From: an uncultured Candidatus Peribacteria bacterium
Lineage (GTDB): Bacteria; Patescibacteriota; Gracilibacteria; UBA1369; LOWO2-01-FULL-3
Length of the DNA stretch: 25,096 nt
Direction of reading: 5' to 3'
Assembly: GCA_964400435.1 (NCBI GenBank)
Contig: CAYNUR010000002.1
Span: 1-25,096 of the forward strand
Position numbers and translations under genes: made by a program. This document shows positions 4,327 to 25,096 of the stretch, piece after piece. The first letter of the stretch is position 1, and each line of letters starts with the position of its first letter. The notes beneath the pieces are model-generated. The model was not told where the DNA came from and ran no database searches. It worked only from the letters and a program-made list of their open reading frames with translations.

Positions 4327-4360
4327 AATTTTTTATTAAATTTTATCCCCCAAATTTTAT

Positions 4361-4903: not shown

Positions 4904-4973
4904 GGATAATTTTTAACTTACAAAAAAAATATAACACGAACAAATCATGCTAGCGAGAATTTCAACTGCACAA

Positions 4974-5996
4974 CTAGCCTAAAACCATTTCTAATTTATC
5001 CTGTTCAATTGCTTCTTTAATATCTCTAGCAATTCTTCGTCCTGTACTCATAGGAACATCATACCTTAGCCAAGAATAAGGTGAACCATTGGTATAAGGA
5101 TTTGTTCCAGCTACAATTCTTGCTGAAATTTCAAAGATATAATAATTCAATTCAGGGTCCACAATTCCTTCTAAACAGAAAGGTCCAAACATCCCATTAT
5201 CAACAAGTTTTCTAGAAGCATCGACTACTTGCTGTCCCATCTCAAAAACAGTTGGCAAAACAGATTCTCTCAAAACAATCGGTACATTTCCAGTGATTGT
5301 ATACGTAGTTCTAATCCCCACATCAACTTGATCTTTAGCAGCGATTCTACCAATAGAATCCGCATTAGACTCATACCTCTTATCAAAGCTCATAATCTCT
5401 AATTCGTCATTCAGTCGACTATAAAAATAATGAGTATAAACTGGAACACCCACAATATATTCTTGAATCGCATAACCAGTCTCATCATCTTCAAACTCTT
5501 TGTACCTCTCATAAAATTCCTTAGTCGAATTCGCTAAGAAATATCCTTGTCCTCCACGTGCACCATGGAATTTAATAATAACAGGTCTATCAATTTCTTC
5601 AGGACTAGCAAAAACCTTAGGAAGTTTAATTCCTGCATCTAAAAGCCATTCTCTTTCTTTTGATCGATCAGATTCCCATTCCAAAATTCCCTTTGTACCA
5701 TAGTGCATAGCTTTCATATCAGTCTTAATCTTCTCAGCACCAAGATAAGCGACAAAAGAACCATGTGGAACAACTATTGCATTTTCATCAACCAGTTGTT
5801 GTTCAATAGAAAAGTAATCTTTAAATTTATCTACTTCAATAATTTTATCTGCAACACCATAGCTTGTGTAAGGCTTAGTTCTACCTTTTTCACAAATAAC
5901 AATAGTTTCAAAGCCTTCATCTTTTGCCCCCTTTAATATTTGAAGAGCGGTATGACTTCCCAGAGTTGCAATTTTAAAATCTTTTACTTTTGTCAT
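4974..5996 (-). CDS. purP: 5-formaminoimidazole-4-carboxamide ribonucleotide (FAICAR) synthetase, formate/ATP-dependent, archaeal type
   Basis: IATLGSHTALQILKGAKDEGF, PHGSFVAYLG, WESDR, IDRPVIIKFHGARGGQGYF, RYESNAD, GPFCLE, FEISARIVAGTN, MSTGRRIAR closely follow canonical PurP. Confidence 0.92.
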   Translation of the reverse strand: MTKVKDFKIATLGSHTALQILKGAKDEGFETIVICEKGRTKPYTSYGVADKIIEVDKFKDYFSIEQQLVDENAIVVPHGSFVAYLGAEKIKTDMKAMHYGTKGILEWESDRSKEREWLLDAGIKLPKVFASPEEIDRPVIIKFHGARGGQGYFLANSTKEFYERYKEFEDDETGYAIQEYIVGVPVYTHYFYSRLNDELEIMSFDKRYESNADSIGRIAAKDQVDVGIRTTYTITGNVPIVLRESVLPTVFEMGQQVVDASRKLVDNGMFGPFCLEGIVDPELNYYIFEISARIVAGTNPYTNGSPYSWLRYDVPMSTGRRIARDIKEAIEQDKLEMVLG

Positions 5997-7056: not shown

Positions 7057-7125
7057 TAACATGAGTGCAATTCTCAATATCAGAGAAAATTGCGCCCAAA
7101 AATGAAAAGAAATAACAAAAATAAA

Positions 7126-10100
7126 ATGGAAGAACACAAGGATCCTAAACAAAAAGAAGGGACTGATCATCCACTTCACGGTTCTACTCCAGGTTCGCAG
7201 GTGAATAAAAAATCACCCGTAAAAAAATGGGGAATATTTGCTTCAGTTGCAGTTGTAATTGGAGTTGTGGCTTATGTTTTAACAGGGACACAGTTATTCC
7301 AAGGGAATATTAGTGGTCCTTTAGACCAAGCAGGTCCAGATGAAATTATGGATCAGATCTACAATGGTTTTGGTCAAAAAGACCTTAGGTTAAGCTATGA
7401 AACCCTCTCTCAAGTTCAACAAGACGAATACAAGAGTTATTATGATAGCTGGGTACAAGTTGAAGATAGACTTGTGAATGATATTCCAAATTTTGATGCG
7501 CTTGAAGTTGAATTACTCAATACTATTGCAGAAAACTATAAACAAGGTTTTGCAGCCCATCCTGATAAAATCCTAGACTTAGTTCATAGCGATTACGAAC
7601 TTACGATTCAAAATCTTATGAGTCTTTTTGATTTTGCAGTTACTGTTTATAGAGATCCAAATGTAGTTCAAGCAAACGGTGTAAATGTTGATGCATTCTT
7701 TGATAGATATAACGATCAATATTTCAATAATAGAAATGCATCTTTACAATTAAGAACCTATTTTAGAAGTGGATTTTGGGATAATGAGATGGTGACTTTC
7801 TTTGATACATATTTTGACGCAATGTATAACTATGTTGAAGCACTTGCATTTACTACAGTTTCCACAGATGACTCAACAACACCAAATACAGCAGTGATTA
7901 ACGGTGTGATTCCAGCTGCCGAGCAAGCAAGAATTCAGCAATTATTTGATGATGCAATTGCAATTCAACCACAAGGAATGGGATTAAACACACCTCCTTT
8001 TGATATTGATTTACCAATGGAAAGAGATGCGAGTCAGCCTTCAAATATTTGGTATTCACCACTAATAAAAACTCCAACTTTCCCACAAACATGGTTGGAT
8101 GATTTAGTTGCAGATATGCAAGCAAGTTATGATCAAGCAGCAAATGACAGAACAGAACAAGCATTAAGAGATTTAGCAAACCATACCAGAGAATTCGTAA
8201 ATGATGGAAGTGCATGTCACCTAATGTATAACACGGTGAATGATTTAAATAACATGCGTCCTCCAGAAGAAAGAATGGATGTTGTCCTACACGATATTTC
8301 TATACAAGAAAACAGTGGTACAAATATCAGATTAGAAGACACAGACACTAAAGCTTATTTTAAGCTATATGGTCCAGTTAACGGAACAGCAATTCCTACA
8401 ACTCCGGAAAAAGAAGTTTACCAGTACTTAGCAGATAACAATTATGTAGGAGAAGACATTATGATTTTTGCTTCTGGAGATAAAAACAGTCAAGAATCTC
8501 AAGGCCTTGAAGCCTACGAACCTACTGAAAAAATTGAAATTCAAGAAGCACAAAAAGTAATTAATTCAATCAATCAAGCAGATGACATTCAAACTCTTAA
8601 ACAATACGAAAGAGCCTGGGGAGAAGTTATTGTTGAAGGTGAATATAATTCTGGTGAGGTTCTCGGAGATGCTGATTATCAAGTCGTTAACACTTACATC
8701 CAAGAAACCAAAACACAGCAATTTAAAAAATTGATCGAAGGTTATCCAAATCTTTCCGAGTCTCAGTTAAAGGACCTTCTTACATTGATAGATGGAACAG
8801 AAGAGTATTCAACTTTAGAAGAATACAAAGAAATTCTTGATTCAAAAGCTTTCGGACAAGATGAAGTTCCTGGAGTTTACACAACGATAAACGATGCAAT
8901 AATTGATCAACAGGCAGAAGTTAAGAAAATTGAAGCAGTAAAAGTTCAAGAAAACTACTACGAATTTGAACCAGCAAACTTATACTTACAAGATTATCAA
9001 TCTCCTACAAGAGTTGAATCAAGCTTGCCTGGCTCAAACGGAAGAACAGCATATGCCCAAGAAATGAGATCACCGGATGAGGAAAATGAAGATATTCCTG
9101 GAGAAGTTGTGGATGATTCAGGAAATACACCAGTTGATAACCAAGAAACAAATGATGGAGGAAGTGCAGAGGGAACAACGGGAGAAGGATCAACAGAAGG
9201 AGGAACAAATGATGGAGGAAGCGCAGAGGGAACAACCGGAGAAGGATCAACAGAAGGAGGAACAAATGATGGAGGGAGTACAGAAGGATCAACTGGAGGA
9301 GAATCAACAGAAGGTGGAATGACAGAAGGAGGAAGCAATGATGGTTCAACTTTAGAGCAAGCAAATGGTGGACTTGTAATTACAGGAACAAACAATCCAG
9401 AAGCCACGAAAGTAGTTGCAACATCAGCTGATATTACTTTCTACTGTATAGATATCCAAGAGCAACAAGTGCCTCAAGACGGAGAGGATGGAACAGATGG
9501 ATTTAGTTGTTGGGACACAAATCAGAACGGAATGAACGATGATGCAGAAGATGTTAATCAAGATGGAGAGTGGAATACGCTAGACTGCCAAGGAGCAGAT
9601 GGTGCAGATGGGACTGATGGAGGGGATGGACAAGCATGTTGGGATACCAACTCAAACGGAGTACCTGATCCTGAAGAGGATGTAAACAATGACGGTTTAA
9701 TAGATGTTCAAGATTGTCAGGGAGCAGACGGACAAGATGGAACAGATGGATTCAGTTGTTGGGATACAAATCAGAACGGAATGAATGATGATGCAGAAGA
9801 TGTAAATCAAGATGGATTCTGGTCAATACAAGATTGTCAGGGGTCAGATGGGGAAGACGGAACAGATGGATTCAGTTGTTGGGATACAAATCAGAACGGA
9901 ATGAATGATGATGCAGAAGATGTAAATCAAGATGGATTCTGGTCAACACAAGATTGTCAGGGGTCAGATGGAGAAGATGGAGAAGACGGAGTTGACGGAC
10001 AAGATGGAGCAGACGGTCAAGACGGTATTGATGGTCAAGCATGTTGGGATGTCAACAACAATGGAACAAGAGATACAAATGAAGACACAAATGGCGACGG

Positions 10101-11061
10101 AATAGTCGATATCAACGATTGTAGAGGTCAAGATGGAAGAGATGGTTCAGGAATTGGTGGGGGAGAAATATATATTGATATTAACATCGAAGATAATTCA
10201 GTCACTGAAATCAATACAGACCGAATCGTGGATGATTATTTTGGAGGAGGAGCAATCACGAATACAGCAACAAATGAAACAGGAGATGTAAACGTAAATA
10301 ACTACGTAGAAATCATCTCTCAAGATGTGCCAGCAGGCGATCTAGTAGCAGAGATCACAAGTCCAGCAAGAAACAACACAGCACTAGATTTCTTTGAATG
10401 TTTAGATCCAGTAACACCAGTGAGTTTCACAGATATCGCAAATGCCTACTACGCCTACGAGCCAGTACAAACATCAGCAAGACTAGGGTACGAAAACCAA
10501 GCGATTACCATAGGTTACCCACAAGGAGTATCAAGAGTATTCAGAGACAAATCAAACATTACGAGAGCAGAATTGAACAAAATGGTAGCGTTTGCATCAT
10601 GTATCTATCCATACTTTGAACAAGAAGGAATCTATGACGAATTAACAAACAGATTCAATGATAACAGTGCAAATGATTGGTTCTACAGACAAGTGAATGC
10701 GTCAGCAAATGGAGGATTAATCCAAGGATATACAGACGGAACATTCAAGCCAAATCAGCCTATTACGAGAGCAGAAGCAACAAAAATCATAGTAGAAATC
10801 TACTTGAGAATATTCCCAGAGAAACAATTGGGAAGTTGTACGAACTCACCATTTAAAGATGTATTCCCAACAGAGTGGTACTGCGGATATGCAGGAACAG
10901 CCTTCAGAGAAGGGATAGTACTAGGTTCAATCAACTCACAAGGAGATCACTTATTCAGACCAAATGCATCAATAACAAGAGGAGAAGTAGCGGTAATTCT
11001 ATATAACTTCTTCATCACAACCTTACAAAATAGTTTAGAAGACACTTCTCTTTCTAACTAG
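7126..11061 (+). CDS. Large acidic surface protein A: N-terminal TM anchor, Gly/Thr/Glu spacer, five Cys-bounded DxNxDG modules with collagen-like linkers, three C-terminal SLH domains
   Basis: TM WGIFASVAVVIGVVAYVL followed by LFQG; SLH motifs ITRAELNKMV, GYTDGTFKPNQPITRAEA, FRPNASITRGEVA. ORF track starts at TTG 7090; ATG 7126 preferred because its context (AATAACAAAAATAAAATGGAAGAA) mirrors the paralogue's start at 11095. Confidence 0.85.
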   Translation: MEEHKDPKQKEGTDHPLHGSTPGSQVNKKSPVKKWGIFASVAVVIGVVAYVLTGTQLFQGNISGPLDQAGPDEIMDQIYNGFGQKDLRLSYETLSQVQQDEYKSYYDSWVQVEDRLVNDIPNFDALEVELLNTIAENYKQGFAAHPDKILDLVHSDYELTIQNLMSLFDFAVTVYRDPNVVQANGVNVDAFFDRYNDQYFNNRNASLQLRTYFRSGFWDNEMVTFFDTYFDAMYNYVEALAFTTVSTDDSTTPNTAVINGVIPAAEQARIQQLFDDAIAIQPQGMGLNTPPFDIDLPMERDASQPSNIWYSPLIKTPTFPQTWLDDLVADMQASYDQAANDRTEQALRDLANHTREFVNDGSACHLMYNTVNDLNNMRPPEERMDVVLHDISIQENSGTNIRLEDTDTKAYFKLYGPVNGTAIPTTPEKEVYQYLADNNYVGEDIMIFASGDKNSQESQGLEAYEPTEKIEIQEAQKVINSINQADDIQTLKQYERAWGEVIVEGEYNSGEVLGDADYQVVNTYIQETKTQQFKKLIEGYPNLSESQLKDLLTLIDGTEEYSTLEEYKEILDSKAFGQDEVPGVYTTINDAIIDQQAEVKKIEAVKVQENYYEFEPANLYLQDYQSPTRVESSLPGSNGRTAYAQEMRSPDEENEDIPGEVVDDSGNTPVDNQETNDGGSAEGTTGEGSTEGGTNDGGSAEGTTGEGSTEGGTNDGGSTEGSTGGESTEGGMTEGGSNDGSTLEQANGGLVITGTNNPEATKVVATSADITFYCIDIQEQQVPQDGEDGTDGFSCWDTNQNGMNDDAEDVNQDGEWNTLDCQGADGADGTDGGDGQACWDTNSNGVPDPEEDVNNDGLIDVQDCQGADGQDGTDGFSCWDTNQNGMNDDAEDVNQDGFWSIQDCQGSDGEDGTDGFSCWDTNQNGMNDDAEDVNQDGFWSTQDCQGSDGEDGEDGVDGQDGADGQDGIDGQACWDVNNNGTRDTNEDTNGDGIVDINDCRGQDGRDGSGIGGGEIYIDINIEDNSVTEINTDRIVDDYFGGGAITNTATNETGDVNVNNYVEIISQDVPAGDLVAEITSPARNNTALDFFECLDPVTPVSFTDIANAYYAYEPVQTSARLGYENQAITIGYPQGVSRVFRDKSNITRAELNKMVAFASCIYPYFEQEGIYDELTNRFNDNSANDWFYRQVNASANGGLIQGYTDGTFKPNQPITRAEATKIIVEIYLRIFPEKQLGSCTNSPFKDVFPTEWYCGYAGTAFREGIVLGSINSQGDHLFRPNASITRGEVAVILYNFFITTLQNSLEDTSLSN
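9148..9318 (+). repeat. Three tandem 57-bp coding repeats (TNDGGSAEGTTGEGSTEGG)
   Basis: Units at 9148-9204, 9205-9261 (near identical) and 9262-9318 (degenerate). Confidence 0.9.
9478..10146 (+). repeat. Five coding modules C-W-D-x-N-x-N-G...E-D-x-N-x-D-G...D-C separated by G-x-D triplets; includes a near-perfect 120-bp tandem duplication (~9739-9978)
   Basis: Lines 9781-9840 and 9901-9960 differ at one base; the repeated peptide is visible in the translation. Confidence 0.9.
10228..11052 (+). repeat. Direct repeat copy 1 (SLH-encoding 3' cassette), partner at 13585-14409
   Basis: Line-by-line comparison: identical over 10228-10958, then five synonymous mismatches to 11052; offset 3357 bp (duplicated ORFs 10398/13755 have the same offset). 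Confidence 0.95.
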
Positions 11062-11094
11062 TTAAAATAAAAAAATAAAATAACAAAAACAAAA

Positions 11095-14000
11095 ATGGAG
11101 GAAAACAAAAACAATATGCCTGAGGAAAAGGCAACTCCAGCAGAACCAATGCCAGAGATGAATTCTCCTCAGCCAGAACCGCCAAAAAAATCTAACGCAA
11201 TGAAATGGTTTATTGGTATAGCGGTGATTTTAATTCTAGGGATTAGTTCATATTTCCTAGCTACATCAGACTTATTTAGAGGTCAGTTAGTGCTACAAGG
11301 TCCAGATCCTGCAACACCTGAAGAAGAAGGAGCCGCAGATGCTTTTGAAGATCTTTACAGAAATCTATCAAATCGTGATTTTGCAGCAATACTAGAATCA
11401 CTTCCTCAAAGCCAAGATGAAGCTATTAGGACGATTCTTAAAACTCCAACAAAACTATATGAAGATCTTGAAAATCGAACTCAAGTTTCAGGTGAAATCG
11501 AAAAAATTCATGAATTTGTAGCAACGACAAATAGTGCATATGACCAGCATTATGAGAATATTCTAGTTTATTTACCTGAATCCTTCGAGATTGATGGAGA
11601 CGTTTATAATATTCAGCATATTGTTAGGCAGTTAGCTCCAGAAGGTCTAGTCGTAGATGCTCTCACTCTTTCAGCAAACGCAATAGAGTTAATTGTTTTA
11701 ACTCCTGAAGATAATTCACCAGAAATAATCAATACAATCACGAACGATTTTATTGATTTAGCTCATGCAGTAGCAAGAAATGTTCATCAGGTAAGTATTG
11801 CTGATATTGTAGATGCAGATACACAAGCTTGGGCAAATGGAGTTGCAACAGCAATTGAACAAGCTCCAGATTTCTTTGATACCGTTGCAAATGCCGATTT
11901 AATTGATAATTTAAGTTCATCAAACGACTTGGTACAGTTTGTAGTTGAAAACACAGACATAAAAGCCCATCCAATTGGTTTAACTCTTCAAGGTTTTGAA
12001 GGTGATTATTATGATGAAATCTTAACAGACCTAGGTCTGGCTGATGGAGCTACAACAGATTTTATTAAAGTAGAAAATGTTTGGATTCCGGAAGATATGC
12101 ATGCTGGGTTCAATGATGTTATCAGAGAGCTAACTTTAGCAATTGTTCAGGTTCCGGATTATCCAGCTCTTCAACAGGAATCAAACTCACTAGGTTGTGA
12201 TATTAGTCAGTACATTCCTGAGTGCAACGATTTGATCTATGAATATGACCAAAAGCTATGGGAAAGAGGCAATATTGTCGCTTCAGGAGGAGACACTACA
12301 ACAGTTGATCAAGAAATTGCTGAGATTGAAAATGATGCAAATGCAATAAGTTGTACGCTTGTTGATGCACCAGAGTACTGGAGAGAGTGTGAAGATTACT
12401 CACGTGAATATGAACAACTACGAGAACAAAGTGCAGAAATGGCAAACAATGGGCAAGATACAACTACAATAGACAACCAAATTGCCCAACTTACTGATCA
12501 GGCAAGTGCTGAGAAATGTGATCTCGGGGAGCCTCAAAAAAGAAGTTGTGAAGATATTGCTACAGAATATAGAAATGAATCTTTAGCTTCAATAGTAGAA
12601 TATATTATTGATGAAATGAATGCAGCTCCTGCAGATACAGAGTACTATCTTGAACTAGGAAATAAATTAGCTGATGAATTAATCGAGTCAGCAAAACAAT
12701 TTGAAAATACAGGTTATGCTTGCCAATATCTTGCTACATCAGCAAGTGCAGTAGACGGTTTTTTAACAGAGGCATTGGGTACAGAATACACAGATGAATT
12801 TGAATTCATTTACAACCAAAACGACTTCCAAAATGCAGATGTTGATTATGTTAATGGGCTTGAAACAGATAGTGTAGTTGCAGATAACCCAGACTATAAC
12901 GAGGTACTTCACATTACAGGTCCAATTCATGGTGAATATCAAACAGATGCTAACGGTAAGGGAATTTACATTCCAGAAGAAAATTACATTGGAGAAGATA
13001 TGATCTTAGATATTTATGCTAATCCAAATACAGATAGTGGAATCATAGCAGTTAGCTGTACTAACATTCTTCCAGAGTGTTGGGATTCAAATACGAATGG
13101 ACTTAAAGATTCTGACGAAGATTTAAATGAAGACGGAGAAGTTGATGACCTCGATTGTGAAGTTATACCAGAACCACCAGTTGATCCAGTAGTTTCATGT
13201 TATGACACTGACGGTGATGGAGTCTACGAAGTTGGAGACGAAAACAATGACGGAGTAATCGATGAAAATGACTGTGACTACGAAGAACCAACTGAACCAG
13301 AAGCAGCAGAGCCTTCTGAACCACCAGAGTTAGAATGTGAAGATATCAATAATGATGGAGTAATCGATAATACGGATTGTTTCCCTGAAGAAGTAGACAT
13401 AGCTGCATGTTGGGATCTAAACGATAATGGCCAAAGAGATGTCGCAACTGAAGATCAAAATAATGATGGAGTGGTTGATATCAGAGATTGTTCAGGAACA
13501 GGAAGTGGTTTAGGTGGAGCAGATCTATACATCAACATCAATATTGAAGATAACTCCGTAACAGAAATTAATTTAGATGATTTAGTGGATGATTATTTTG
13601 GAGGAGGAGCAATCACGAATACAGCAACAAATGAAACAGGAGATGTAAACGTAAATAACTACGTAGAAATCATCTCTCAAGATGTGCCAGCAGGCGATCT
13701 AGTAGCAGAGATCACAAGTCCAGCAAGAAACAACACAGCACTAGATTTCTTTGAATGTTTAGATCCAGTAACACCAGTGAGTTTCACAGATATCGCAAAT
13801 GCCTACTACGCCTACGAGCCAGTACAAACATCAGCAAGACTAGGGTACGAAAACCAAGCGATTACCATAGGTTACCCACAAGGAGTATCAAGAGTATTCA
13901 GAGACAAATCAAACATTACGAGAGCAGAATTGAACAAAATGGTAGCGTTTGCATCATGTATCTATCCATACTTTGAACAAGAAGGAATCTATGACGAATT

Positions 14001-14415
14001 AACAAACAGATTCAATGATAACAGTGCAAATGATTGGTTCTACAGACAAGTGAATGCGTCAGCAAATGGAGGATTAATCCAAGGATATACAGACGGAACA
14101 TTCAAGCCAAATCAGCCTATTACGAGAGCAGAAGCAACAAAAATCATAGTAGAAATCTACTTGAGAATATTCCCAGAGAAACAATTGGGAAGTTGTACGA
14201 ACTCACCATTTAAAGATGTATTCCCAACAGAGTGGTACTGCGGATATGCAGGAACAGCCTTCAGAGAAGGGATAGTACTAGGTTCAATCAACTCACAAGG
14301 AGATCACTTATTCAGGCCAAATGCATCAATAACAAGGGGAGAAGTAGCAGTAATTCTATATAACTTCTTCATCACAACCTTACAAAATAGTTTAGAAGAT
14401 ACCTCTCTTCAGTAA
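11095..14415 (+). CDS. Large acidic surface protein B, paralogue of A: N-terminal TM, helical Cys-stapled repeats, Cys-bounded DxNxDG modules with Pro/Glu linkers, three SLH domains
   Basis: TM WFIGIAVILILGISSYFL followed by LFRG; C-terminal ~275 aa essentially identical to protein A. Confidence 0.88.
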   Translation: MEENKNNMPEEKATPAEPMPEMNSPQPEPPKKSNAMKWFIGIAVILILGISSYFLATSDLFRGQLVLQGPDPATPEEEGAADAFEDLYRNLSNRDFAAILESLPQSQDEAIRTILKTPTKLYEDLENRTQVSGEIEKIHEFVATTNSAYDQHYENILVYLPESFEIDGDVYNIQHIVRQLAPEGLVVDALTLSANAIELIVLTPEDNSPEIINTITNDFIDLAHAVARNVHQVSIADIVDADTQAWANGVATAIEQAPDFFDTVANADLIDNLSSSNDLVQFVVENTDIKAHPIGLTLQGFEGDYYDEILTDLGLADGATTDFIKVENVWIPEDMHAGFNDVIRELTLAIVQVPDYPALQQESNSLGCDISQYIPECNDLIYEYDQKLWERGNIVASGGDTTTVDQEIAEIENDANAISCTLVDAPEYWRECEDYSREYEQLREQSAEMANNGQDTTTIDNQIAQLTDQASAEKCDLGEPQKRSCEDIATEYRNESLASIVEYIIDEMNAAPADTEYYLELGNKLADELIESAKQFENTGYACQYLATSASAVDGFLTEALGTEYTDEFEFIYNQNDFQNADVDYVNGLETDSVVADNPDYNEVLHITGPIHGEYQTDANGKGIYIPEENYIGEDMILDIYANPNTDSGIIAVSCTNILPECWDSNTNGLKDSDEDLNEDGEVDDLDCEVIPEPPVDPVVSCYDTDGDGVYEVGDENNDGVIDENDCDYEEPTEPEAAEPSEPPELECEDINNDGVIDNTDCFPEEVDIAACWDLNDNGQRDVATEDQNNDGVVDIRDCSGTGSGLGGADLYININIEDNSVTEINLDDLVDDYFGGGAITNTATNETGDVNVNNYVEIISQDVPAGDLVAEITSPARNNTALDFFECLDPVTPVSFTDIANAYYAYEPVQTSARLGYENQAITIGYPQGVSRVFRDKSNITRAELNKMVAFASCIYPYFEQEGIYDELTNRFNDNSANDWFYRQVNASANGGLIQGYTDGTFKPNQPITRAEATKIIVEIYLRIFPEKQLGSCTNSPFKDVFPTEWYCGYAGTAFREGIVLGSINSQGDHLFRPNASITRGEVAVILYNFFITTLQNSLEDTSLQ
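13585..14409 (+). repeat. Direct repeat copy 2 (SLH-encoding 3' cassette), partner at 10228-11052
   Basis: Same comparison as copy 1. Confidence 0.95.
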
Positions 14416-16710: not shown

Positions 16711-17880
16711 CTAGTAGTAGTAACCAGGATTTTTCTTAACTCCATTGTCGATTACTTCGAAATGAAGATGAATACCAGTAGCACCATATACTCTACCTGT
16801 ATTACCCATGATACCAATTACGTCACCTTGGTTAACCCATTGTCCAGGAGCTACGTTTACCGTATCAAGATGGGCATAATGAGATACTAGGCCATTTCCA
16901 TGATCAATATAGACATGGTTACCATATCCACCTCCATAAGTACCAGTAGAAACGCTAGAAACAGTACCTCCTCCAGCAGCCCAAATAGGTGGTTTACTTC
17001 TGTCTGCGATATCAAGAGCTAAATGACCTCCATGGTAACCTTGAGTAATCTTACCTCTAGTCGGGAAGATGAATGGTTTAGCCCCGACTGGAGCAGTGTT
17101 ATTTGCTGGAATTGATGAGAAATCAACAGTTCTAGTAGTTCCACCATCTCTAACAGTGTTGTCGTTCCTAATAATTGTAGGGTTACTAGCAATTATTTGT
17201 GGTGGTGGAGCAAGTGGTTCAGCTCCAGGTAAGAAGATTTGTTGACCTTTTACTACTGTTGCAGCACCTAACGCATTCTGTGCAATTATAGAGTCAGTTG
17301 AAATTTCGTATTCCTCAGAAATATTCTCTAATGTATCTCCTTTCTTCACTTCATAGCTAATTCCATCCACCGGTGGAACCATTAATTTTTGACCTGATTT
17401 AATAGAGTTTGCGTTACCAATTCCATTCTCCCACATAATGGTATCTACATTTACACCATATCTACTTGCTATCAATGACAATGTTTCTCCGCTTTCTACC
17501 GTATGAACAGCGTAATCAGTCATACCTACTCTATTTGAGTCATCAGTTTGTGGATTGATTTTAACTAGGTAGCCATATTCATCTGCAACTAAAATATCAC
17601 TAGGCATAGAATAAGACTCCATATACTCAACATCGTAAGCCACATAGCTTGATACAAAAGTTCCTCCAGGTGTAATTGCACTAGAAACAATAGCCGCTAG
17701 GGCAATAGCACTAGTTTGAAAAAGAATTTTTCCTTGAGGAGTTACAGGAATTAAATCTCCTGCTGCACTTTTTAAACCTCTAAAAACACCAACAGTTTTT
17801 GATACTGCTGGTAGCTCACCAATTTTAGTCAGCCCCTTTGAGGCAGACTTAATCGCACTATATAAGTGCATTCTAACCAA
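16711..17880 (-). CDS. LysM x2 + M23 family metalloendopeptidase (cell-wall hydrolase); reading frame stays open upstream to 17964+
   Basis: LysM repeats HTVESGETLSLIASRYGV and YEVKKGDTLENISEEY; M23 zinc motifs HLALD and HLHFE, YAHL; N-terminal hydrophobic segment. Confidence 0.92.
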   Translation of the reverse strand: MVRMHLYSAIKSASKGLTKIGELPAVSKTVGVFRGLKSAAGDLIPVTPQGKILFQTSAIALAAIVSSAITPGGTFVSSYVAYDVEYMESYSMPSDILVADEYGYLVKINPQTDDSNRVGMTDYAVHTVESGETLSLIASRYGVNVDTIMWENGIGNANSIKSGQKLMVPPVDGISYEVKKGDTLENISEEYEISTDSIIAQNALGAATVVKGQQIFLPGAEPLAPPPQIIASNPTIIRNDNTVRDGGTTRTVDFSSIPANNTAPVGAKPFIFPTRGKITQGYHGGHLALDIADRSKPPIWAAGGGTVSSVSTGTYGGGYGNHVYIDHGNGLVSHYAHLDTVNVAPGQWVNQGDVIGIMGNTGRVYGATGIHLHFEVIDNGVKKNPGYYY

Positions 17881-18362: not shown

Positions 18363-18926
18363 ATGAATATTAAAGATTCTATGAGCTACGAGCTCATGCT
18401 CCTGTATTTCCCAGATTTAGGAGAAAAAGGTCAGAAAGAAGCACTAGATGAAGCAAGAAACCTTCTTACTTCCAACGGTGCAGAGATCACACATGAAGAC
18501 ATCTGGGGACTTCGTGATCTAGCTTACAGAATTAAAAAACAAGACCAAGGTTATTATGCGGTCTTGAATTTTAACTTGGAAAAAGGTGAAAACCTTCCAG
18601 AGATTGTAGAATCTCTAAATCTTGATCAGTCTATTATTAGACACCTTTTGATTAAGACTCCAAAAAACTACCAACTTACAACTTTAGCTGAATACCAAGC
18701 TGCAGCTGCAGAAGAGGAAGCTGAAGAAGAAAAAAAACAGGCTGAAAAAAGAAAATCTTCTCCAAAGCCAAAAAAGAAAGAAGTAAAAAAAGAAAAGCCA
18801 AAATCTTCACCAAAAAAAGAAGATCAGTCTGAAAAATCTGAAAAGAAAGAAGAATCAAAAGGAAAATTAGAAGAAGTTGATAAAAAGCTAAAAAGCATTA
18901 TCAATGATCCTGATATCAGTATTTAA
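18363..18926 (+). CDS. rpsF: 30S ribosomal protein S6 with long charged C-terminal extension
   Basis: YELMLL, WGLRDLAYRIKK..QGYYAVLNF, IIRHLLIK; position upstream of ssb-rpsR. Confidence 0.95.
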   Translation: MNIKDSMSYELMLLYFPDLGEKGQKEALDEARNLLTSNGAEITHEDIWGLRDLAYRIKKQDQGYYAVLNFNLEKGENLPEIVESLNLDQSIIRHLLIKTPKNYQLTTLAEYQAAAAEEEAEEEKKQAEKRKSSPKPKKKEVKKEKPKSSPKKEDQSEKSEKKEESKGKLEEVDKKLKSIINDPDISI

Positions 18927-18944
18927 CTAACTTAATCAAAGAAA

Positions 18945-19373
18945 ATGAGATCAGTAAATAAAGTTATTCTAATTGGAAATCTGACAAGAGATCCTGTAAT
19001 GAAAACAACTCAAAGTGGTCAAACAATTACAACTTTTGGAATTGCTACTAACCGAGAATGGGTAACTAGTGATAGCGACCATAAGAAATCAACTGAATTT
19101 CACGAAATCGTAGCATGGGCTAAACTTGCTGAAATCTGTAATAAATACCTTAAAAAAGGAAAATTAGTATATATTGAAGGTTACATCAAAAGAAGAAGCT
19201 GGGACAGTGAAGAAGGGGAAAAAAGATATAGAACTGAAATCGTTATGCAAGATATGATCATGCTTAACAAAAAAGGTTCTGGATCTGATGACATGGAATA
19301 TGATTCAGAAATGGATGATGATTCAATGTCTCATGATGATTCTTCTGAAGAAGGTGATGAAAACCTATTTTAA
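18945..19373 (+). CDS. ssb: Single-stranded DNA-binding protein
   Basis: VNKVILIGNLTRDP, TEFHEIVAWAKLAE, KGKLVYIEG, acidic tail ending in LF. Confidence 0.97.
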   Translation: MRSVNKVILIGNLTRDPVMKTTQSGQTITTFGIATNREWVTSDSDHKKSTEFHEIVAWAKLAEICNKYLKKGKLVYIEGYIKRRSWDSEEGEKRYRTEIVMQDMIMLNKKGSGSDDMEYDSEMDDDSMSHDDSSEEGDENLF

Positions 19374-19392
19374 ATTTTAACTTCAACTAATC

Positions 19393-19611
19393 ATGCCAAC
19401 ATACAAAGGAAGAAAGTGTTATTTCACTCAAAACGATATTGAATATATCGATTACAAAAATATCAAACTATTGAAGAGATTCATTTCTCAATATAAAAAG
19501 ATTGTTCCAAAATACTACAGCGGAACAAGTCTAAAACACCAAAAGAGACTGGCAAAAGCCGTAAAAAACGCTAGATATATGGGGTTACTTCCATACACTA
19601 CTGGACAGTAA
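19393..19611 (+). CDS. rpsR: 30S ribosomal protein S18
   Basis: IDYKNIKLLKRFIS...KIVP...GT..KHQKRLAKAVKNARYMGLLPY. Confidence 0.96.
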   Translation: MPTYKGRKCYFTQNDIEYIDYKNIKLLKRFISQYKKIVPKYYSGTSLKHQKRLAKAVKNARYMGLLPYTTGQ

Positions 19612-19629
19612 ATTACCGATATCATCATC

Positions 19630-19662
19630 AAAAAAAGAGGTGCAATATGTGCCTCTTTTTTT
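19630..19662 (+). terminator. Intrinsic terminator after rpsR
   Basis: AAAAAAAGAGGTGCA-ATA-TGTGCCTCTTTTTTT stem (two G-U pairs) with U tract. Confidence 0.85.
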
Positions 19663-19702: not shown

Positions 19703-19731
19703 TTGAAAAAAATACAAACTTTTGCTATAAT
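19703..19731 (+). promoter_or_regulatory. Strong consensus sigma70 promoter for the right-hand membrane-protein operon
   Basis: TTGAAA-N17-TATAAT with extended TGn. Confidence 0.75.
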
Positions 19732-19754
19732 TAGGAGATTAAATCCAGAGGGAA

Positions 19755-20309
19755 ATGTTAAAAAAAATAAAAACCAAAATAAAAGATAAGAAAAAGCTTA
19801 AAAAAGCTCGCAAGAACGAGTCAAAAAGCAATTCAACTGCCTTTGATAATGCGGATATAAAATGGACTGCTCCAGAGTATATCAAGCATGAGAAAGGTAA
19901 AGTCTGGTATGCAGTTGCTATTGGAATTACCCTTATTACGGCCATACTTGGAGTTTATTACCAAGCTTGGACTTTTTCACTAGCAATCATCACATTTGCG
20001 ATCGTTTATTACATCGTAAACTTAGAGCACCCTGAAAACATAGACATAAAGGTTTCCAAAATAGGAGTTAAAGTAGGTAACAAGAAGTATTCCTTTGGAG
20101 AAATTCAAAGTTTTTGGATTCTTTATGATCCTCCATATTTGAATACCTTAAACATCAAGATTAAAGATAAATTCCTCACGGATATTGCAATTCAATTAAA
20201 TGACCAAAATCCTGCAGAAGTAAGGGAGTATTTAATTAGAAAAATACCAGAGCTTGAAGGTAAATCTGAACATTTTAGCGACGTGCTATTAAGAATTTTT
20301 AAACTCTAG
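19755..20309 (+). CDS. Hypothetical membrane protein: basic N-terminus, two TM helices, small C-terminal beta-rich (PH-like) domain
   Basis: WTAPEY..HEK...WY before a TM hairpin, then GVKVGNKKYSFGEIQSFWI; resembles a Patescibacteria-conserved family (recalled, not searched); GAGG upstream of ATG. Confidence 0.6.
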   Translation: MLKKIKTKIKDKKKLKKARKNESKSNSTAFDNADIKWTAPEYIKHEKGKVWYAVAIGITLITAILGVYYQAWTFSLAIITFAIVYYIVNLEHPENIDIKVSKIGVKVGNKKYSFGEIQSFWILYDPPYLNTLNIKIKDKFLTDIAIQLNDQNPAEVREYLIRKIPELEGKSEHFSDVLLRIFKL

Positions 20310-20310
20310 A

Positions 20311-21945
20311 ATGACCAATCCAAATAAACCAAAAGCCAGTCCAGAAGCTTCACCTGATGAGAATGTAAATTCTCAGACACCTGCCCTAAAGTCAAATATT
20401 GATGATGAAGTTACAAATGAATTATTGCGTAGCAGTGAAAAAGACGAGCTGCAGGATGAATCTGCATCTGCAGTAGATACTCAAGAAGAAGGCACGATTG
20501 ATAAAGCTAAATTAAAGTTAGTTCATGTTGGTGAAGCCGATAAAATTGTTAGAGACGCAATTGCAAATGCAAGACGATTAAATAATGGAGAGTTAGGAGA
20601 TAAACTAAAATTAGATAAAAATCATCAAAGAGTTGCTCAATCCCTCCCTGAAATAAAATACAAACTAAATTCAAGAGTGAACGATATTGAAGATTATTGG
20701 ATACAAGAATCAGGGAAGCTTGTTGAAAAAATCCAAGAAAAACAAGGAACTCTAGAAGAGCTGATAAATCTAAGAAAATATTGTGAAGAAGAATTAGAGA
20801 AAAATGTAGAAACAATAGCCTTTTTAATTGAAGATATAAGCAATGGTTCATACATTACAGAAGAAATCCTTCTAGAAATGGAGAAACGTTTCGATGAGCT
20901 AGAAGATATTATGACTAGCCAAGCAAACGGAGAACTCAGAGAGACACTGGATTGGGCTATTGGAAACGTAAAAGAAGGAGCAAAGGATAGCCCAGAGTTA
21001 AAATCAAAAAACTTCACTAAGTTATCTAACAATTTGCAAAATCCAAATAGTGAGAAAGCTGAACTTTCTTGGTTTATTTTGAGCAATCTTAGCTACAATC
21101 AAAAAATGGATTTTATTAATTTCCATTTTAAGAGATCTGCTCAAACTAATGCAGAAAGATTGGCATTTCTAGACAGTGGTATCAAAGAAGGCGTAATTCA
21201 TCCTGGAATGGCAGAAATTATCGGAGAAAAGTATGGAGTTTCCATGTCTCAAGACAAGATAAAAAGTTATGAACAGACTTATGAAATGGTTTGGAATACA
21301 AAAAAACAAGCTAAAAAGGTCTTTAAAACAGTATATCTCGGAAAAAATGCAGCCGGAGAAATGATTACAGGTAAAAATGCCGTAAAATTTGCAGTTCAAG
21401 CAGCAGCAACTGCAACACTAGTTGGAAATGTCTTAGTTGCATTTATGGCAAAAAATCCAGAATCAATTGGAACAAATCCATATGTTTATGCCTCAACTGG
21501 AGTATTAGTGGCGACTAGTCAACCGTCCCTTTCTCAGTTCTTTGAGCCAAAAGAGAGCCGTGAACATAACAGGAAAAATCAATTACTAAATGACTTATTG
21601 CACCTAGATCTAGACAGTAGTTTTGCAAGATCAAATGGTTTCTTTGCCTCAAACAAAACACCAAATCTTCATTCATTCAGTGAATTTGTAATCGACATTA
21701 AACAAAAAAATGACGGAAAAATTGTAGATAAAGAAATCACAAAAGATAAATTCTTAAGTTTTTTAAAAGAAAAACCCGCATATTCAAGGTTGATTCCAAG
21801 CTTAGAATCAGCAAGTTTCGATGACAAAAAACTAAAAAACTTTGCTCATATTTTTGAAGAATTCAACATTTATGGCTCAAACCCAAATTTAACAAGAGAA
21901 ACTTACAATAAATATTTAGATCAAGCTAAAGAACAAAACAACTAA
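20311..21945 (+). CDS. Hypothetical protein, largely helical/coiled-coil with two short hydrophobic segments in the C-terminal half
   Basis: 544-codon ORF, 1-bp gaps to both neighbours; no recognisable family. Confidence 0.7.
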   Translation: MTNPNKPKASPEASPDENVNSQTPALKSNIDDEVTNELLRSSEKDELQDESASAVDTQEEGTIDKAKLKLVHVGEADKIVRDAIANARRLNNGELGDKLKLDKNHQRVAQSLPEIKYKLNSRVNDIEDYWIQESGKLVEKIQEKQGTLEELINLRKYCEEELEKNVETIAFLIEDISNGSYITEEILLEMEKRFDELEDIMTSQANGELRETLDWAIGNVKEGAKDSPELKSKNFTKLSNNLQNPNSEKAELSWFILSNLSYNQKMDFINFHFKRSAQTNAERLAFLDSGIKEGVIHPGMAEIIGEKYGVSMSQDKIKSYEQTYEMVWNTKKQAKKVFKTVYLGKNAAGEMITGKNAVKFAVQAAATATLVGNVLVAFMAKNPESIGTNPYVYASTGVLVATSQPSLSQFFEPKESREHNRKNQLLNDLLHLDLDSSFARSNGFFASNKTPNLHSFSEFVIDIKQKNDGKIVDKEITKDKFLSFLKEKPAYSRLIPSLESASFDDKKLKNFAHIFEEFNIYGSNPNLTRETYNKYLDQAKEQNN

Positions 21946-21946
21946 A

Positions 21947-22327
21947 ATGGAAAGAAATAAAAATCTAGAATTACAGGAAAAAGCCATAGAAGAAAAACGT
22001 AAACAGGCTTTTAAAAAAGCAGAGGAAGAAGCTGTAATGGTTCAAAGATTACAGACAGCCCAACTACAACAAGCAGCAGAACAAGAATTACAAAGAAGAA
22101 TAATTGTACAAGCAGCACTACAGAAAGCTCAATTGCAAGCAGCAAAAGCCAAAGCAGCAGAAGATGAAAGAAAAAAGAAAAACCCAGCAAGAAAACTGGC
22201 AAAAAAAGTACTTTGGTGGACAGCAGGAATTCCATCAGGAATGGGAATAATCTCAATTTTGTCTGGAGAACCATCCGTAGAAACAGCAAGTCTACCAATA
22301 GAATTCCTTAAAAATTTCCTAGCTTAA
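21947..22327 (+). CDS. Hypothetical Q/A/K-rich coiled-coil protein with a C-terminal TM segment
   Basis: 126-codon ORF in operon; VLWWTAGIPSGMGIISIL hydrophobic segment. Confidence 0.7.
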   Translation: MERNKNLELQEKAIEEKRKQAFKKAEEEAVMVQRLQTAQLQQAAEQELQRRIIVQAALQKAQLQAAKAKAAEDERKKKNPARKLAKKVLWWTAGIPSGMGIISILSGEPSVETASLPIEFLKNFLA

Positions 22328-22348
22328 AAAAGCAAAATAAAAACCAAA

Positions 22349-24709
22349 ATGTTCAAAAACCAAAAACGAAAAATCTGGAAAAAATTATTATTCGCAACAG
22401 GAATATTTCTTTTGATATTCACTTTTGCACCAGATTCCTTCACTACAAGTTTTGATTCAATTACTGCGTTTGCGAATGGGGGTAATGTTCAAACCGCAGT
22501 TTCACAAACTGACAATTCCCAACTAACAAGGTTCTCTACTGCACTTCTAGGTATTTCAAATGCAGTAAACAAGCTAATCTGGCCGATCCTTATTATGATC
22601 GGAGGTTTATTGGACAACAGTATCCTTTTTGGTGCTGGTATGGAAGATAGAATGCGAGAAATTTGGATTCCGATTAGAAACATTATGAATATCCTATTCG
22701 TTGTCGCACTTGTTGGGATTGCACTCTATAACGTTTTAGGAATCGGAGAAGAAAATGGAGAATATTCCATCAAAGCAATTCTCCCAAAAATAGTAATCGG
22801 TATTATTGCCGTCAATTTTTCATTTGTAGGTGTAAAGCTAGTTTTAGATACAGTAAATGTTCTAACAACATCAGTTTTCTCCCTCCCAGATCAGGTTGGT
22901 GAAGAAATGGCCAGAATTACAGTCGCCACTGATGACAAAACCATTGATAGATTTTGTAAAGTCCTCCAGGGAGCACCCATCGATCAAGTAGTAACTGACG
23001 AAGAATTAATAGCAAGAACACAGCAAAAGTCCTGTAAAATTGCTGCAGATAATATCGGAATTTCAACAGTAGGAAGCTGTACTGAAATTGAGCAAGCAGC
23101 AGCTGATGCTGGACGAAGTTCAGGATATCAAGAGGCGCTAAATAGGCTGCAACAAGGAGAAATCTGTCAGGGAGGAGAATTAACAGAGACCGGAAGAGTA
23201 TTTCTCCAAAGGTTTAGCTCTAGAAACGTAGCTGTAGCAATGGCGCTTAGTTTAGGTAAAATTCTCTATTATCAAGATGTAGATTTCAATATTCAAAATA
23301 TTGAAGATCTCTTCATTAGTACAGTCTTCTCAGCACTTATGTATATTGCCTATCTGGCATCATTCTTAGCTTTATTCATAATTTTATTGGCAAGGCTCGT
23401 CGTTATGTGGCTGGCCATAGTCCTTTCACCGATAATCATGCTAGCAATGGCTGTGCCCGCATTGGAAAGCAAATTACCAGGTTTTGATAAGATTAAAGAA
23501 GAATTTGTAAAGAACGCAGTTGTACCATTAGCAGTTTCCATCCCCTTAACTGTTGGTTGGATCATGTTGAAATCAATGCAAAGTGTGAATAATCTAAGCC
23601 CTGATTCGCTATTTATTGATCGTCGAGTCTTCGAAGGAGCCAGTAACGGTATTCCTGTTGTCGGCCTAAATACTCTCCAAGACTTAGTTGTAGCAATTGG
23701 AACCCTCGCAGTTATTTGGTTGGGAGTATTTGCTGCCGCCGAAGCCAGTGTTGCTCGTGATATTACAAACAGCATTAAAGGTGGACTTGAAGGACTTGGA
23801 AAGTTCGTTGCTGGAATCCCATTCAAGCACATTAAAGCTGTTCCAATTATCAACCCACAAACTGGTGAAAAAATGGGAGATTACTCTGCAGCACAAGTTA
23901 CTCAGGCTTTAAAGAACTTAAATTCAACTGGTGATGTAAACAAACTTTGGGACGATATCCGTGGAGGAAAATCAGCTACAACTCAAGATATTATTGCTGC
24001 AAATACTGATGCAGATCTAGTATCTACGCTTAAAGATCCAGTTATTCTTAACAATTTAAACAACCAAGACAATCATAGAAACCTCAAACTCAAACTTGAA
24101 ACTCCTGAAGGTCAAGAAATACTCACAAAGATCTCGACAAAAGATCCAAATCTTGCAGCACAGTTAAAAAGATACGCAGATGCACCACCAGACAAACTTG
24201 CCGAAGAAGCTGAAAAACTGAAGAAAGCACTTGAAAGAACTCAGCCACCAGAATACCAAAGAAAAACATCTACATTAGACACAGCGCCATCAGTACAAGA
24301 TCAAAGTAAAGATGTCGTCAGCCCAGACAAACCAATCGAATACAAAGATGTTAGCGGCAACAAGCAAGTGATTAACGCAAACGCTCAACAAGCAACAACC
24401 TTAAACGCAAACTTCTCAGCCCTAAAAGAAAAAGCCGCAGAAGGAAATGGAGCAGAAGTCATTACTCAATTAGCAAATCTCAATGCTTCACTCGGCACTA
24501 TGGGTGTAGAATTTGATAACGTACAAGACTTCACTAACTTTATGGAATCAACAATAGGACAACCAGAATTCGAAAAAATAACAAAAACATTGAGCTCATT
24601 ACCTGATACCGATTTCCCTGAAATATTAAGTGATACATCAAAAGGAGATGGAGCTGCACGAGCTTTTGTTAAAGCAACTGGAAAAACTGTCGGACAACAA
24701 ACACAATAG
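22349..24709 (+). CDS. Polytopic membrane protein, VirB6/TrbL-like family as seen in Patescibacteria
   Basis: Signal-peptide-like N-terminus ending AFA; W..IRNIMNILFVVALVGIALYNVLG...YSIKAILPKIVIGIIAVNFS and LLARLVVMWLAIVLSPI motifs; four-Cys soluble insert; long helical C-terminal tail. Family call from recalled pattern. Confidence 0.6.
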   Translation: MFKNQKRKIWKKLLFATGIFLLIFTFAPDSFTTSFDSITAFANGGNVQTAVSQTDNSQLTRFSTALLGISNAVNKLIWPILIMIGGLLDNSILFGAGMEDRMREIWIPIRNIMNILFVVALVGIALYNVLGIGEENGEYSIKAILPKIVIGIIAVNFSFVGVKLVLDTVNVLTTSVFSLPDQVGEEMARITVATDDKTIDRFCKVLQGAPIDQVVTDEELIARTQQKSCKIAADNIGISTVGSCTEIEQAAADAGRSSGYQEALNRLQQGEICQGGELTETGRVFLQRFSSRNVAVAMALSLGKILYYQDVDFNIQNIEDLFISTVFSALMYIAYLASFLALFIILLARLVVMWLAIVLSPIIMLAMAVPALESKLPGFDKIKEEFVKNAVVPLAVSIPLTVGWIMLKSMQSVNNLSPDSLFIDRRVFEGASNGIPVVGLNTLQDLVVAIGTLAVIWLGVFAAAEASVARDITNSIKGGLEGLGKFVAGIPFKHIKAVPIINPQTGEKMGDYSAAQVTQALKNLNSTGDVNKLWDDIRGGKSATTQDIIAANTDADLVSTLKDPVILNNLNNQDNHRNLKLKLETPEGQEILTKISTKDPNLAAQLKRYADAPPDKLAEEAEKLKKALERTQPPEYQRKTSTLDTAPSVQDQSKDVVSPDKPIEYKDVSGNKQVINANAQQATTLNANFSALKEKAAEGNGAEVITQLANLNASLGTMGVEFDNVQDFTNFMESTIGQPEFEKITKTLSSLPDTDFPEILSDTSKGDGAARAFVKATGKTVGQQTQ

Positions 24710-24773
24710 AATCTCCTTGCATTTTCCGTTCAAAACATAATAAAATTACCCGTTAACTCTTAACACATTCCAA

Positions 24774-25096
24774 ATGTCTTCAATCGAACAAGACAATCAG
24801 GAAAAAAACAACAAAAAAGAAACCGAAAAAGGGTCAAAATCTGACAAACCCGTAAAAGATAAAGTAAAAGAAGTACTGGAAGAAACTCCAGAAAAAGAAG
24901 AAAGCTCTGTTCGTGAATTAAATGCTCACGAAAAGAACTTAGCTAAACAAATAAAAAAACATCCAAACGGAGAAAAAGTAATTGAATCCCGCAAAAAAGG
25001 GAAAATAAGCGGTCCAGTTTTCGAAGAGCTCTCTGATTTGCTTAAAAATCCAAAAACAGCTCAATCAGACAGTCCGTATCAGGATCTAATAAAAGC
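24774..25096 (+). CDS. Hypothetical charged protein, 3' end truncated (absent from ORF track)
   Basis: ATG at 24774, frame open to the window end: MSSIEQDNQEKNNKKETEKGSKSDKPVKDKVKEVLEE... Confidence 0.7.
   Translation, partial: MSSIEQDNQEKNNKKETEKGSKSDKPVKDKVKEVLEETPEKEESSVRELNAHEKNLAKQIKKHPNGEKVIESRKKGKISGPVFEELSDLLKNPKTAQSDSPYQDLIK

Follow-up and report, generated by a model that had tools for sequence, protein, structure and literature searches.

A divergent TrbL/VirB6-like protein in a ribosome-linked operon of Peribacteria, and its probable place in a dispersed chromosomal type IV secretion system

Introduction

The window considered here is the whole of a 25,096-nt contig (CAYNUR010000002.1; contig C2 of the source assembly, G000) from an uncultured Candidatus Peribacteria bacterium, an ultrasmall member of the Peregrinibacteria in the Candidate Phyla Radiation (CPR). 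The Peregrinibacteria are presumably part of the GTDB class Gracilibacteria, which is the class meant below. The end of the window carries the greater part of an operon, g1–g6, positioned after a block of ribosomal genes. Its fourth gene, g4, encodes a large membrane protein in which a preliminary description of the sequence saw a likeness to VirB6/TrbL, a family known from type IV secretion systems (T4SS). The locus thus raises the question of whether an unnamed membrane-protein operon set among housekeeping genes belongs to a secretion machine, and if so to which one.

As judged from sequence profiles, g4 very probably belongs to the TrbL/VirB6 superfamily, as a distant yet true member. The operon as a whole is probably a detached module of the lineage's chromosomal Patescibacteria-type T4SS, consisting of a VirB6 channel subunit and class-specific partners, and a joint function of g4 with VirB4 is likely to much the same degree. 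A secretion function for the operon is suggested by homology and gene context. The genes concerned, all open reading frames (ORFs), are as follows.

Window 19755..20309, forward strand: g1, 184 aa
Window 20311..21945, forward strand: g2, 544 aa
Window 21947..22327, forward strand: g3, 126 aa
Window 22349..24709, forward strand: g4, 786 aa, polytopic protein, very probably a divergent TrbL/VirB6-family member
Window 24774..25096, forward strand: start of g5, first 107 codons (24774–25094), open at the contig end
Contig C55 of the same assembly (G000:C55:3-2777): remainder of g5, 924 aa, located by tblastn with relatives' homologues and by ORFs
Contig C55 (G000:C55), 2974–5937: g6, 987 aa

g4 as a divergent TrbL/VirB6 protein

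More than 140 homologues of g4 were found, all without a name and all from Peregrinibacteria/Gracilibacteria records. In a sample of the phylum, plain phmmer searches with g4 match 107 of 201 genomes by way of residues ~60–190 and 315–500, and these matches coincide with Pfam TrbL/VirB6 matches in the same ORFs and the same register, many of the latter above the curated cut-off. The g4 family profile, compared with a set of 20 CPR proteins, gave an hhalign probability of 99.6% (E 1.4e-24 and 6.6e-25 in two runs) over 260–281 columns, with both transmembrane (TM) blocks collinear and g4 residues ~184–317 skipped as an insertion. All 20 of the comparison proteins match PF04610 (best 1e-9); in a six-frame search 19 of the ORFs were over the PF04610 cut-off, one of them only with neighbouring stretches, and the other was 0.4 bits under it. 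A reversed-template control fell to a probability of 0.7%, and an independent control using three TrbL-positive proteins not chosen via g4 gave 92.8% (E 4e-7). Polar motifs are shared in both TM blocks (W..R..VN..F ... Y.IK..LP.LI....VNFS; R...W....SP). The kinship proposed in the preliminary description holds at this sequence-profile level.

Conservation is distributed very unevenly along the protein. The identities given below for its regions are means to the window's g4 over a 42-member family alignment, possibly reaching beyond the order.

Residues ~1–42: signal peptide
Residues 96–183: TM block A, 71% mean identity
Residues 184–317: inserted Cys-containing domain, 26% mean identity
Residues 318–494: TM block B, 49% mean identity
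Residues 495–786: Cys-free tail of ~290 aa, 17% mean identity

The earlier picture of a 786-aa polytopic protein with four Cys between TM blocks and a long tail agrees with this layout. Hydropathy gives ~7 hydrophobic segments, and the AlphaFold2 (AF2) model has long helices. The Cys residues of the window g4 are at positions 203, 229, 244, and 273. Across the family, Cys counts after the signal peptide are always even (0, 2, 4, or 6), with two or four in the insert (four here) and none in the tail. The canonical VirB6 layout has the N-terminus outside, a large outer loop, and the C-terminus inside. The even Cys pattern suggests disulfides outside the cell, and would fit this canonical five-TM layout.

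Other T4SS genes in the genome and the order

The preliminary description proposed searching for VirB4 and PrgI in the sequence downstream. Neither is just downstream; they are found at two other loci instead. A VirB4 gene just past the contig end, considered as a candidate, is ruled out, as the continuation on contig C55 carries g5, g6, and thrS. VirB4 of the source genome is an 815-aa protein on contig C68, assigned by its domains rather than by phylogeny, with matches to P-loop_TraG (89.6 bits), AAA_10, TraC_F_IV, and CagE_TrbE_VirB; a T4SS cluster in a different CPR class contains a VirB4 with 59% identity to it. PrgI/VirB3 is on contig C114 (51.8 bits). VirB4 is single-copy in 40 of the 41 genomes of the order, at 62–87% identity, and is found in 145 of 151 genomes of the class (49–87% overall). 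In two relatives the genes are positioned as follows.

G007: g4 at 374 kb, PrgI at 757 kb, VirB4 at 787 kb
G025: g4 at 187 kb, PrgI at 727 kb, VirB4 at 771 kb

In the order, VirB4 is flanked by gyrA on one side and by an unknown 802–821-aa single-TM protein and then gyrB on the other (L055, G007:C1:778000-797000; L056, G025), with no polytopic gene next to it. In closed relatives no clustering of the components was found within ~20 genes of virB4. PrgI in G025 adjoins lepA and then a TrsD-like protein with a weak TraC_F_IV match; the TrsD-like protein was looked for, and seen, in this relative. The T4SS genes of the order are thus split over at least three loci embedded in housekeeping genes: gyrB-X-virB4|gyrA, lepA|prgI-trsD-like, and rpsF-ssb-rpsR>g1-g5<thrS. 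There is no Pfam TrbL match in G000 or in ten other genomes of the class that were sampled; because of this, and because no polytopic gene lies beside VirB4, g4 is the only VirB6 candidate.

This agrees with a recent survey in which VirB6 homologues in the class Gracilibacteria were reported as "absent, suggesting extreme sequence divergence," and TrsD and VirB3 as not near virB4 (Quinonero-Coronel et al., 2025; PMC12102498). No paper was found linking Peregrinibacteria or Peribacteria to VirB6/TrbL.

Some smaller observations belong here. Four genes after PrgI in G025 there is a 91-aa protein with two TM segments and no Pfam match (L058, 10243–10518); in both size and topology it would be compatible with a VirB2-like pilin. 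The virB4 frame of G007 has one in-frame TAA, and that of G028 one TAG. The source assembly, 1.64 Mb in 360 contigs and 88% complete, is larger than most of the listed relatives (0.7–1.5 Mb, with one of 1.9 Mb), and may contain more than one strain or some foreign contigs.

Gene context across the class

In other families of the class the same components are found in closer association. G252 has a g4-like gene (1649 aa) followed by PrgI (48.9 bits), a TrsD-like gene, VirB4, and a LysM/M23-like gene. In G333 the order is g4-like (1093 aa), PrgI (48.6 bits), TrsD-like, VirB4, three unknowns, and a g1 homologue (E 1.7e-31). G300 and G319 are intermediate: VirB4 is divergent from a P-type ATPase gene, after which come g1-x-g4-g5, with VirB4 3.5 kb from this group and g4 within 8 kb of VirB4. 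In each of these genomes the VirB4-linked copy is the sole g4 homologue. Elsewhere in the CPR, in a different class, VirB4 has two tandem g4-like/TrbL genes directly beside it.

The same set of components is thus found in compact, intermediate, and fully dispersed form. The compact and intermediate clusters are the strongest evidence that the window operon is functionally tied to VirB4 and PrgI, and g1 is drawn into the system by its presence in the G333 cluster and beside VirB4 in G300 and G319.

Operon layout and conservation

The preliminary description reported a promoter followed by at least five co-oriented genes, and both the ORFs and a promoter scan bear this out: g1–g5 are all on the forward strand, with intergenic gaps of 1, 1, 21, and 64 bp. 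Immediately upstream are the following features.

Window 18363..19611, forward strand: rpsF-ssb-rpsR block, from translations and from Ribosomal_S6, SSB, and Ribosomal_S18 labels in syntenic relatives
Window 19630..19662, forward strand: intrinsic terminator 3' of rpsR, a 15-pair stem and then a T run
Window 19703..19731, forward strand: predicted sigma-70-type promoter, TTGAAA-17-TATAAT plus the TG of an extended -10, 11 of 12 positions matching the consensus

The promoter is the only site with 11 of 12 matches within the 6.9 kb scanned. The last gene had been described as truncated, and g5 is indeed open at the contig end; by tblastn the operon resumes on contig C55 with the rest of g5, then g6, then a convergent thrS. 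This matches the layout in public relatives, rpsF-(ssb)-rpsR > g1 > g2 > g3 > g4 > g5 > (g6) < thrS.

The full order rpsF-ssb-rpsR > g1-g2-g3-g4-g5(-g6) < thrS is kept in 20 of 22 related loci. Across 20 genomes of the same order the arrangement is nearly invariant, with the ribosomal block in the same order in 18 and inverted in two. The block is a conserved upstream anchor, outside the machine itself. It is not an absolute one, because in a distant relative (L064, 765–3128) a purL-like gene with FGAR-AT/AIRS domains is inserted between rpsR and g1. Spacings or overlaps of 1–4 bp recur at most g1–g4 junctions, which suggests translational coupling of these genes.

g4 was found in 38 of the 41 genomes of the order, single-copy and in the same housekeeping context, and, with the g4 profile, in 136 of the 151 genomes of the class. 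The genes of the operon as a group are single-copy and in the same rpsR–thrS position across 17 families of the order. The linkage that the preliminary description made a test of its reading is thus conserved across the order and beyond, and its term "domesticated," in the sense of a non-mobile, lineage-specific chromosomal locus, seems well chosen. Conservation differs by gene: the families of g1, g4, and g5 are well conserved, g2 is fast-evolving, g3 is recognizable only as a positional equivalent, and g6 is optional.

Ten other ORFs of the window were scanned, encoding purN, a sugar-nucleotide transferase, a CDP-alcohol transferase, two PurP, an HD protein, UppP, purH, YidD, and a LysM-M23 protein. 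In agreement with the preliminary description, no relaxase, integrase, or other mobility domain was found in the window ORFs scanned, two genes at 7090–14415 being outside the scan. Neither the window nor contig C55 has a relaxase or coupling-protein domain; no genome-wide search for relaxase or VirD4 was made. GC content is 0.32–0.40 throughout the window, with no anomaly, and there are no repeats.

Many of the sampled relatives also keep the LysM plus peptidase M23 gene (16711–17880, reverse strand) at its place just before rpsF, and in G252 a LysM/M23-like protein directly follows VirB4. LysM/M23 proteins are listed among the VirB1-like hydrolases of T4SS (PMC12102498). The window's LysM/M23 neighbor could be a candidate wall-opening enzyme of the system.

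The partner proteins

Direct scans of g1–g6 against Pfam, NCBIfam, PHROGs, and PADLOC gave nothing significant, and hhalign comparisons of g1, g2, g3, g5, and g6 with the TrsD/VirB4 N-domain and with each other gave probabilities of at most 0.4%. By these searches the five are conserved families or positional genes without recognised relatives, and the expectation of novel accessory subunits was in this respect well founded.

g1 has a Lys-rich N-terminus, a W-x-A-P-E motif, a TM hairpin (~50–90), and a small C-terminal domain ending IPELEGK...RIFKL; the hairpin had been noted before and is supported by hydropathy. The family is kept in all 21 loci compared. Its homologues come from Peregrinibacteria/Gracilibacteria records only, and all are unnamed or hypothetical save for one with a JGI label, "Ca2+-dependent lipid-binding protein."

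g2 is mostly helical, as previously described for this 544-aa protein, with an acidic N-terminus and, by hydropathy, one central TM segment (~355–380). Its positional equivalents are 447–657 aa long in 20 loci, and BLASTP splits them into several groups. g3, a coiled coil rich in Gln and Ala, ends in the hydrophobic tail WWTAGIPSGMGIISILSG. The C-terminal anchor assigned to it earlier is predicted in several relatives, but in G000 itself the tail is below the hydropathy threshold. At 126 aa the window g3 is the shortest; those of relatives are 234–601 aa, and the sequences are not alignable between genomes. The gene is fused to g4 in L044 (1269 aa) and missing in two relatives. The window g3 seems to keep the tail anchor but either to have lost the N-terminal part or never to have acquired it.

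g5 is soluble by hydropathy; its homologues elsewhere are 1014–1555 aa long, with a variable coiled-coil N-terminal half and a conserved C-terminal domain of ~590 aa (G000:C55 990–2777). This domain contains an invariant DHDD and many invariant charged residues (Lys, Arg, Glu, His). The homologues found share 32–54% identity with the G000 domain, and in the operon only one segment is better conserved. The AF2 model of the domain is confident (pLDDT 84, pTM 0.82) and all-alpha; Foldseek against the PDB gave no fold match (best E 0.014, TM-score at most 0.25), and no sequence match was found in PDB, Pfam, PHROGs, or PADLOC. The family numbers ~620 clusters at 50% identity among 1.84 billion proteins. 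Of the 151 class genomes 75 have it, and the phylum sample yielded it nowhere outside the class.

g6 is optional and highly variable (286–987 aa), and in G000 it has a unique Cys-rich insert of ~100 aa. It has no match in Pfam or the PDB. By eye, its C-terminus (C55 5344–5499) is RelA/SpoT-like, with TDLxRMTFVVD ... SK..Y ... EIRI..EDL ... SH..YE.RR; it is also the genome's third-best match to RelA_SpoT (PF04607), at 14.8 bits and E 0.035, below the cut-off.

Taken from predicted topology, most of this accessory mass (the C-terminal domain of g1, the N-terminal two thirds of g2, the coiled coil of g3, g5, and g6) should face the cytoplasm. A role for the partners as host-contact parts, which the preliminary description had put forward, is disfavoured for this reason.

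Alternative explanations

A number of observations weigh against the reading of the operon as part of a VirB4-dependent system, or against its elements. In closed or nearly closed relatives VirB4 and PrgI are single-copy and 400–580 kb from g4. G030, a genome of the order which is marker-complete (100%) in 20 contigs and keeps g1–g5, is without VirB4 by protein or PF19044 search, and five further drafts carry g4 and no detectable VirB4. The VirB4 absences are all in multi-contig drafts; the g4 absences are mostly in families with weak or missing g4 matches, and in some genomes the matched frames carry in-frame TGA codons. Co-occurrence, an earlier suggestion for a check, could be scored over 151 genomes of the class and proved uninformative: both g4 and VirB4 are near-universal, which does not discriminate. 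g2 and g3 are barely conserved and g5 can be unlinked, so that a stable six-protein complex is not supported; g5 is apart from g4 in several families of the class, and adjacent to it in this order and in family f20. As to g4 itself, a strict count of seven TM segments would put its Cys domain in the cytoplasm, opposite to the reading from Cys counts. The window g4 has no direct Pfam TrbL match, and no family member (n=42) is over the TrbL threshold; in favor of the kinship, one of the 42 has a weak direct match, in register, at E 0.038, the G333 orthologue matches TrbL at E 9e-4, and five members carry precomputed TrbL_3 (PF19590) matches, strength not given. The Foldseek check that had been proposed found no VirB6 in the PDB for the g4 AF2 model (pLDDT 76) and nothing at E<=0.001, in a test poorly suited to helical membrane bundles and partly built VirB6 chains. 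Searches of PDB sequences with the g4 and CPR TrbL profiles likewise returned no solved VirB6, giving coiled-coil noise or nothing.

The main alternative is that a channel derived from VirB6 now works in a distinct machine of g1–g5 that does without VirB4 and has g5 as an enzymatic or energising part. Such a machine might serve a core task, for example in division, in the uptake of nutrients or DNA, or in the biogenesis of the envelope or of surface proteins. The operon is physically apart from VirB4 and PrgI in the order, has its own predicted promoter and terminator among core genes, and persists in G030 and the five other drafts; g5 could suit such a role, as DHDD and its other invariant charged residues look like those of an enzyme and no match to a known fold was found. 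Yet the VirB4-less cases are all multi-contig drafts, and g1–g6 contain no ATPase motif. VirB4 and PrgI themselves are retained, each in a single and highly conserved copy, and there is no VirB6 candidate besides g4. Other families of the class have their only g4 homologue inside VirB6-PrgI-TrsD-VirB4 clusters, once with g1. An independent machine is accordingly considered rather unlikely, if a serious possibility.

A partial alternative concerns g5, and g6 with it, which could be translocated substrates or effectors encoded beside the channel rather than structural partners. Effectors encoded next to their channel are common for secretion systems, and here two large soluble proteins directly follow the channel gene. 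The variable N-terminal half of g5, its separation from g4 in several families, and the optional, very variable g6, whose weak RelA/SpoT-like C-terminal signal recalls toxin-type nucleotidyltransferases, would all be in keeping with this. The degree of conservation of the g5 C-terminal domain is unusual for effectors, however, and the idea is considered improbable.

It could also be argued that hydrophobic composition alone makes g4 look like VirB6, the operon then being an unrelated lineage-specific membrane complex. The missing direct Pfam match and the empty Foldseek and PDB searches are what such an argument would draw on. A composition effect is hard to reconcile with hhalign E-values of ~1e-24, with polar motifs that are conserved and collinear in both TM blocks, with a null reversed control beside a positive independent TrbL subset, or with phmmer matches falling on the same ORFs and register as over-threshold TrbL matches in many CPR genomes, and this explanation is essentially excluded. 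Finally, the genes are hardly at all likely to be the remnant of an integrated conjugative element and this reading is rejected: the VirB6 and VirB4 families do derive from conjugation systems, and this VirB4 clade is related to MPF-FATA (PMC12102498), but the genes are single-copy at one constant rpsR–thrS site across 17 families, with no GC anomaly and no integrase, relaxase, or repeats in the window.

Proposed arrangement

If the operon is a detached module of the chromosomal T4SS, g4 would form a membrane translocon with PrgI/VirB3 and VirB4. Its Cys domain would be the large extracytoplasmic loop of a canonical VirB6, and its tail would be cytoplasmic. g1, g2, and g3, by their predicted TM hairpin, single central TM segment, and tail anchor respectively, would be membrane-tethered and mostly on the cytoplasmic side, and the 1-bp gene spacing might allow g1–g3 to be made in a fixed ratio with g4. 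g5, large and soluble with its enzyme-like domain, and the optional g6 may dock to this assembly, perhaps on the g4 tail, and recruit or process the substrate.

A more specific version is speculative and on balance doubtful. In it, g1–g3 and g5 would make up a new cytoplasmic-face module of CPR T4SS, and the g5 domain would be a novel enzyme acting to select, process, or drive the substrate, standing in functionally for the relaxase/coupling-protein side that is missing from these systems; or else it would power a VirB4-independent VirB6 channel.

Comparison with known systems

The closest comparison is with the Patescibacteria-clade T4SS, whose VirB4 is related to MPF-FATA and whose chromosomal genes are essential in "Ca. 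Southlakia epibionticum" (PMC12102498). Like that system, the genes described here are chromosomal, close to housekeeping genes, and with no relaxase nearby, and VirB4, PrgI/VirB3, a TrsD-like protein, and a VirB6-family protein are found in G000 or its close relatives. They differ in that the components in this order are spread over three or more loci, with distances of up to 580 kb between them, that the VirB6-family protein is too divergent for the hidden Markov models of the 2025 survey, and that g4 is in an operon with g1, g2, g3, g5, and g6, families not described there (PMC12102498).

With the TrbL/VirB6 family in general g4 shares a polytopic structure with two conserved TM blocks; the large loop between them would probably face outward, and the C-terminus may be cytoplasmic. 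Examples of this family (PF04610) are Agrobacterium VirB6 and the large Gram-positive homologues PrgH (pCF10) and ConG (ICEBs1); g4 is similar in size to the latter two, at ~800 aa. Unlike the rest of the family, g4 is below the Pfam threshold and has a cleavable-looking signal peptide, an insert of 134–160 aa in its family with two invariant Cys (four in G000), and a non-conserved tail of ~210–425 aa, and in this order it is not encoded beside VirB4.

The Rickettsiales rvh T4SS (PMC2653234, PMC7648143) is likewise found in host-dependent bacteria with reduced genomes, in dispersed chromosomal islands, and with long VirB6 extensions. It is a diderm system with VirB7-11 and multiple VirB6 paralogues, in contrast to the single VirB6-like gene, monoderm-type set, and unrelated accessories seen here. 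The likeness is an analogy, with no apparent kinship beyond the shared families.

Significance

Few systems have been shown to be indispensable to Patescibacteria in their epibiotic life, and the T4SS genes belong to these. g4 is a well-supported candidate for the VirB6 subunit that the 2025 survey did not find in the class Gracilibacteria (PMC12102498). The T4SS genes of this order are dispersed into three housekeeping neighborhoods, with compact and intermediate forms retained in related families, and two conserved partner families are defined, g1 and g5, the latter with its ~620 clusters and no fold match in the PDB. For the T4SS field this is an incremental step, since the type of system is known; for the CPR systems, it makes their cytoplasmic side testable.

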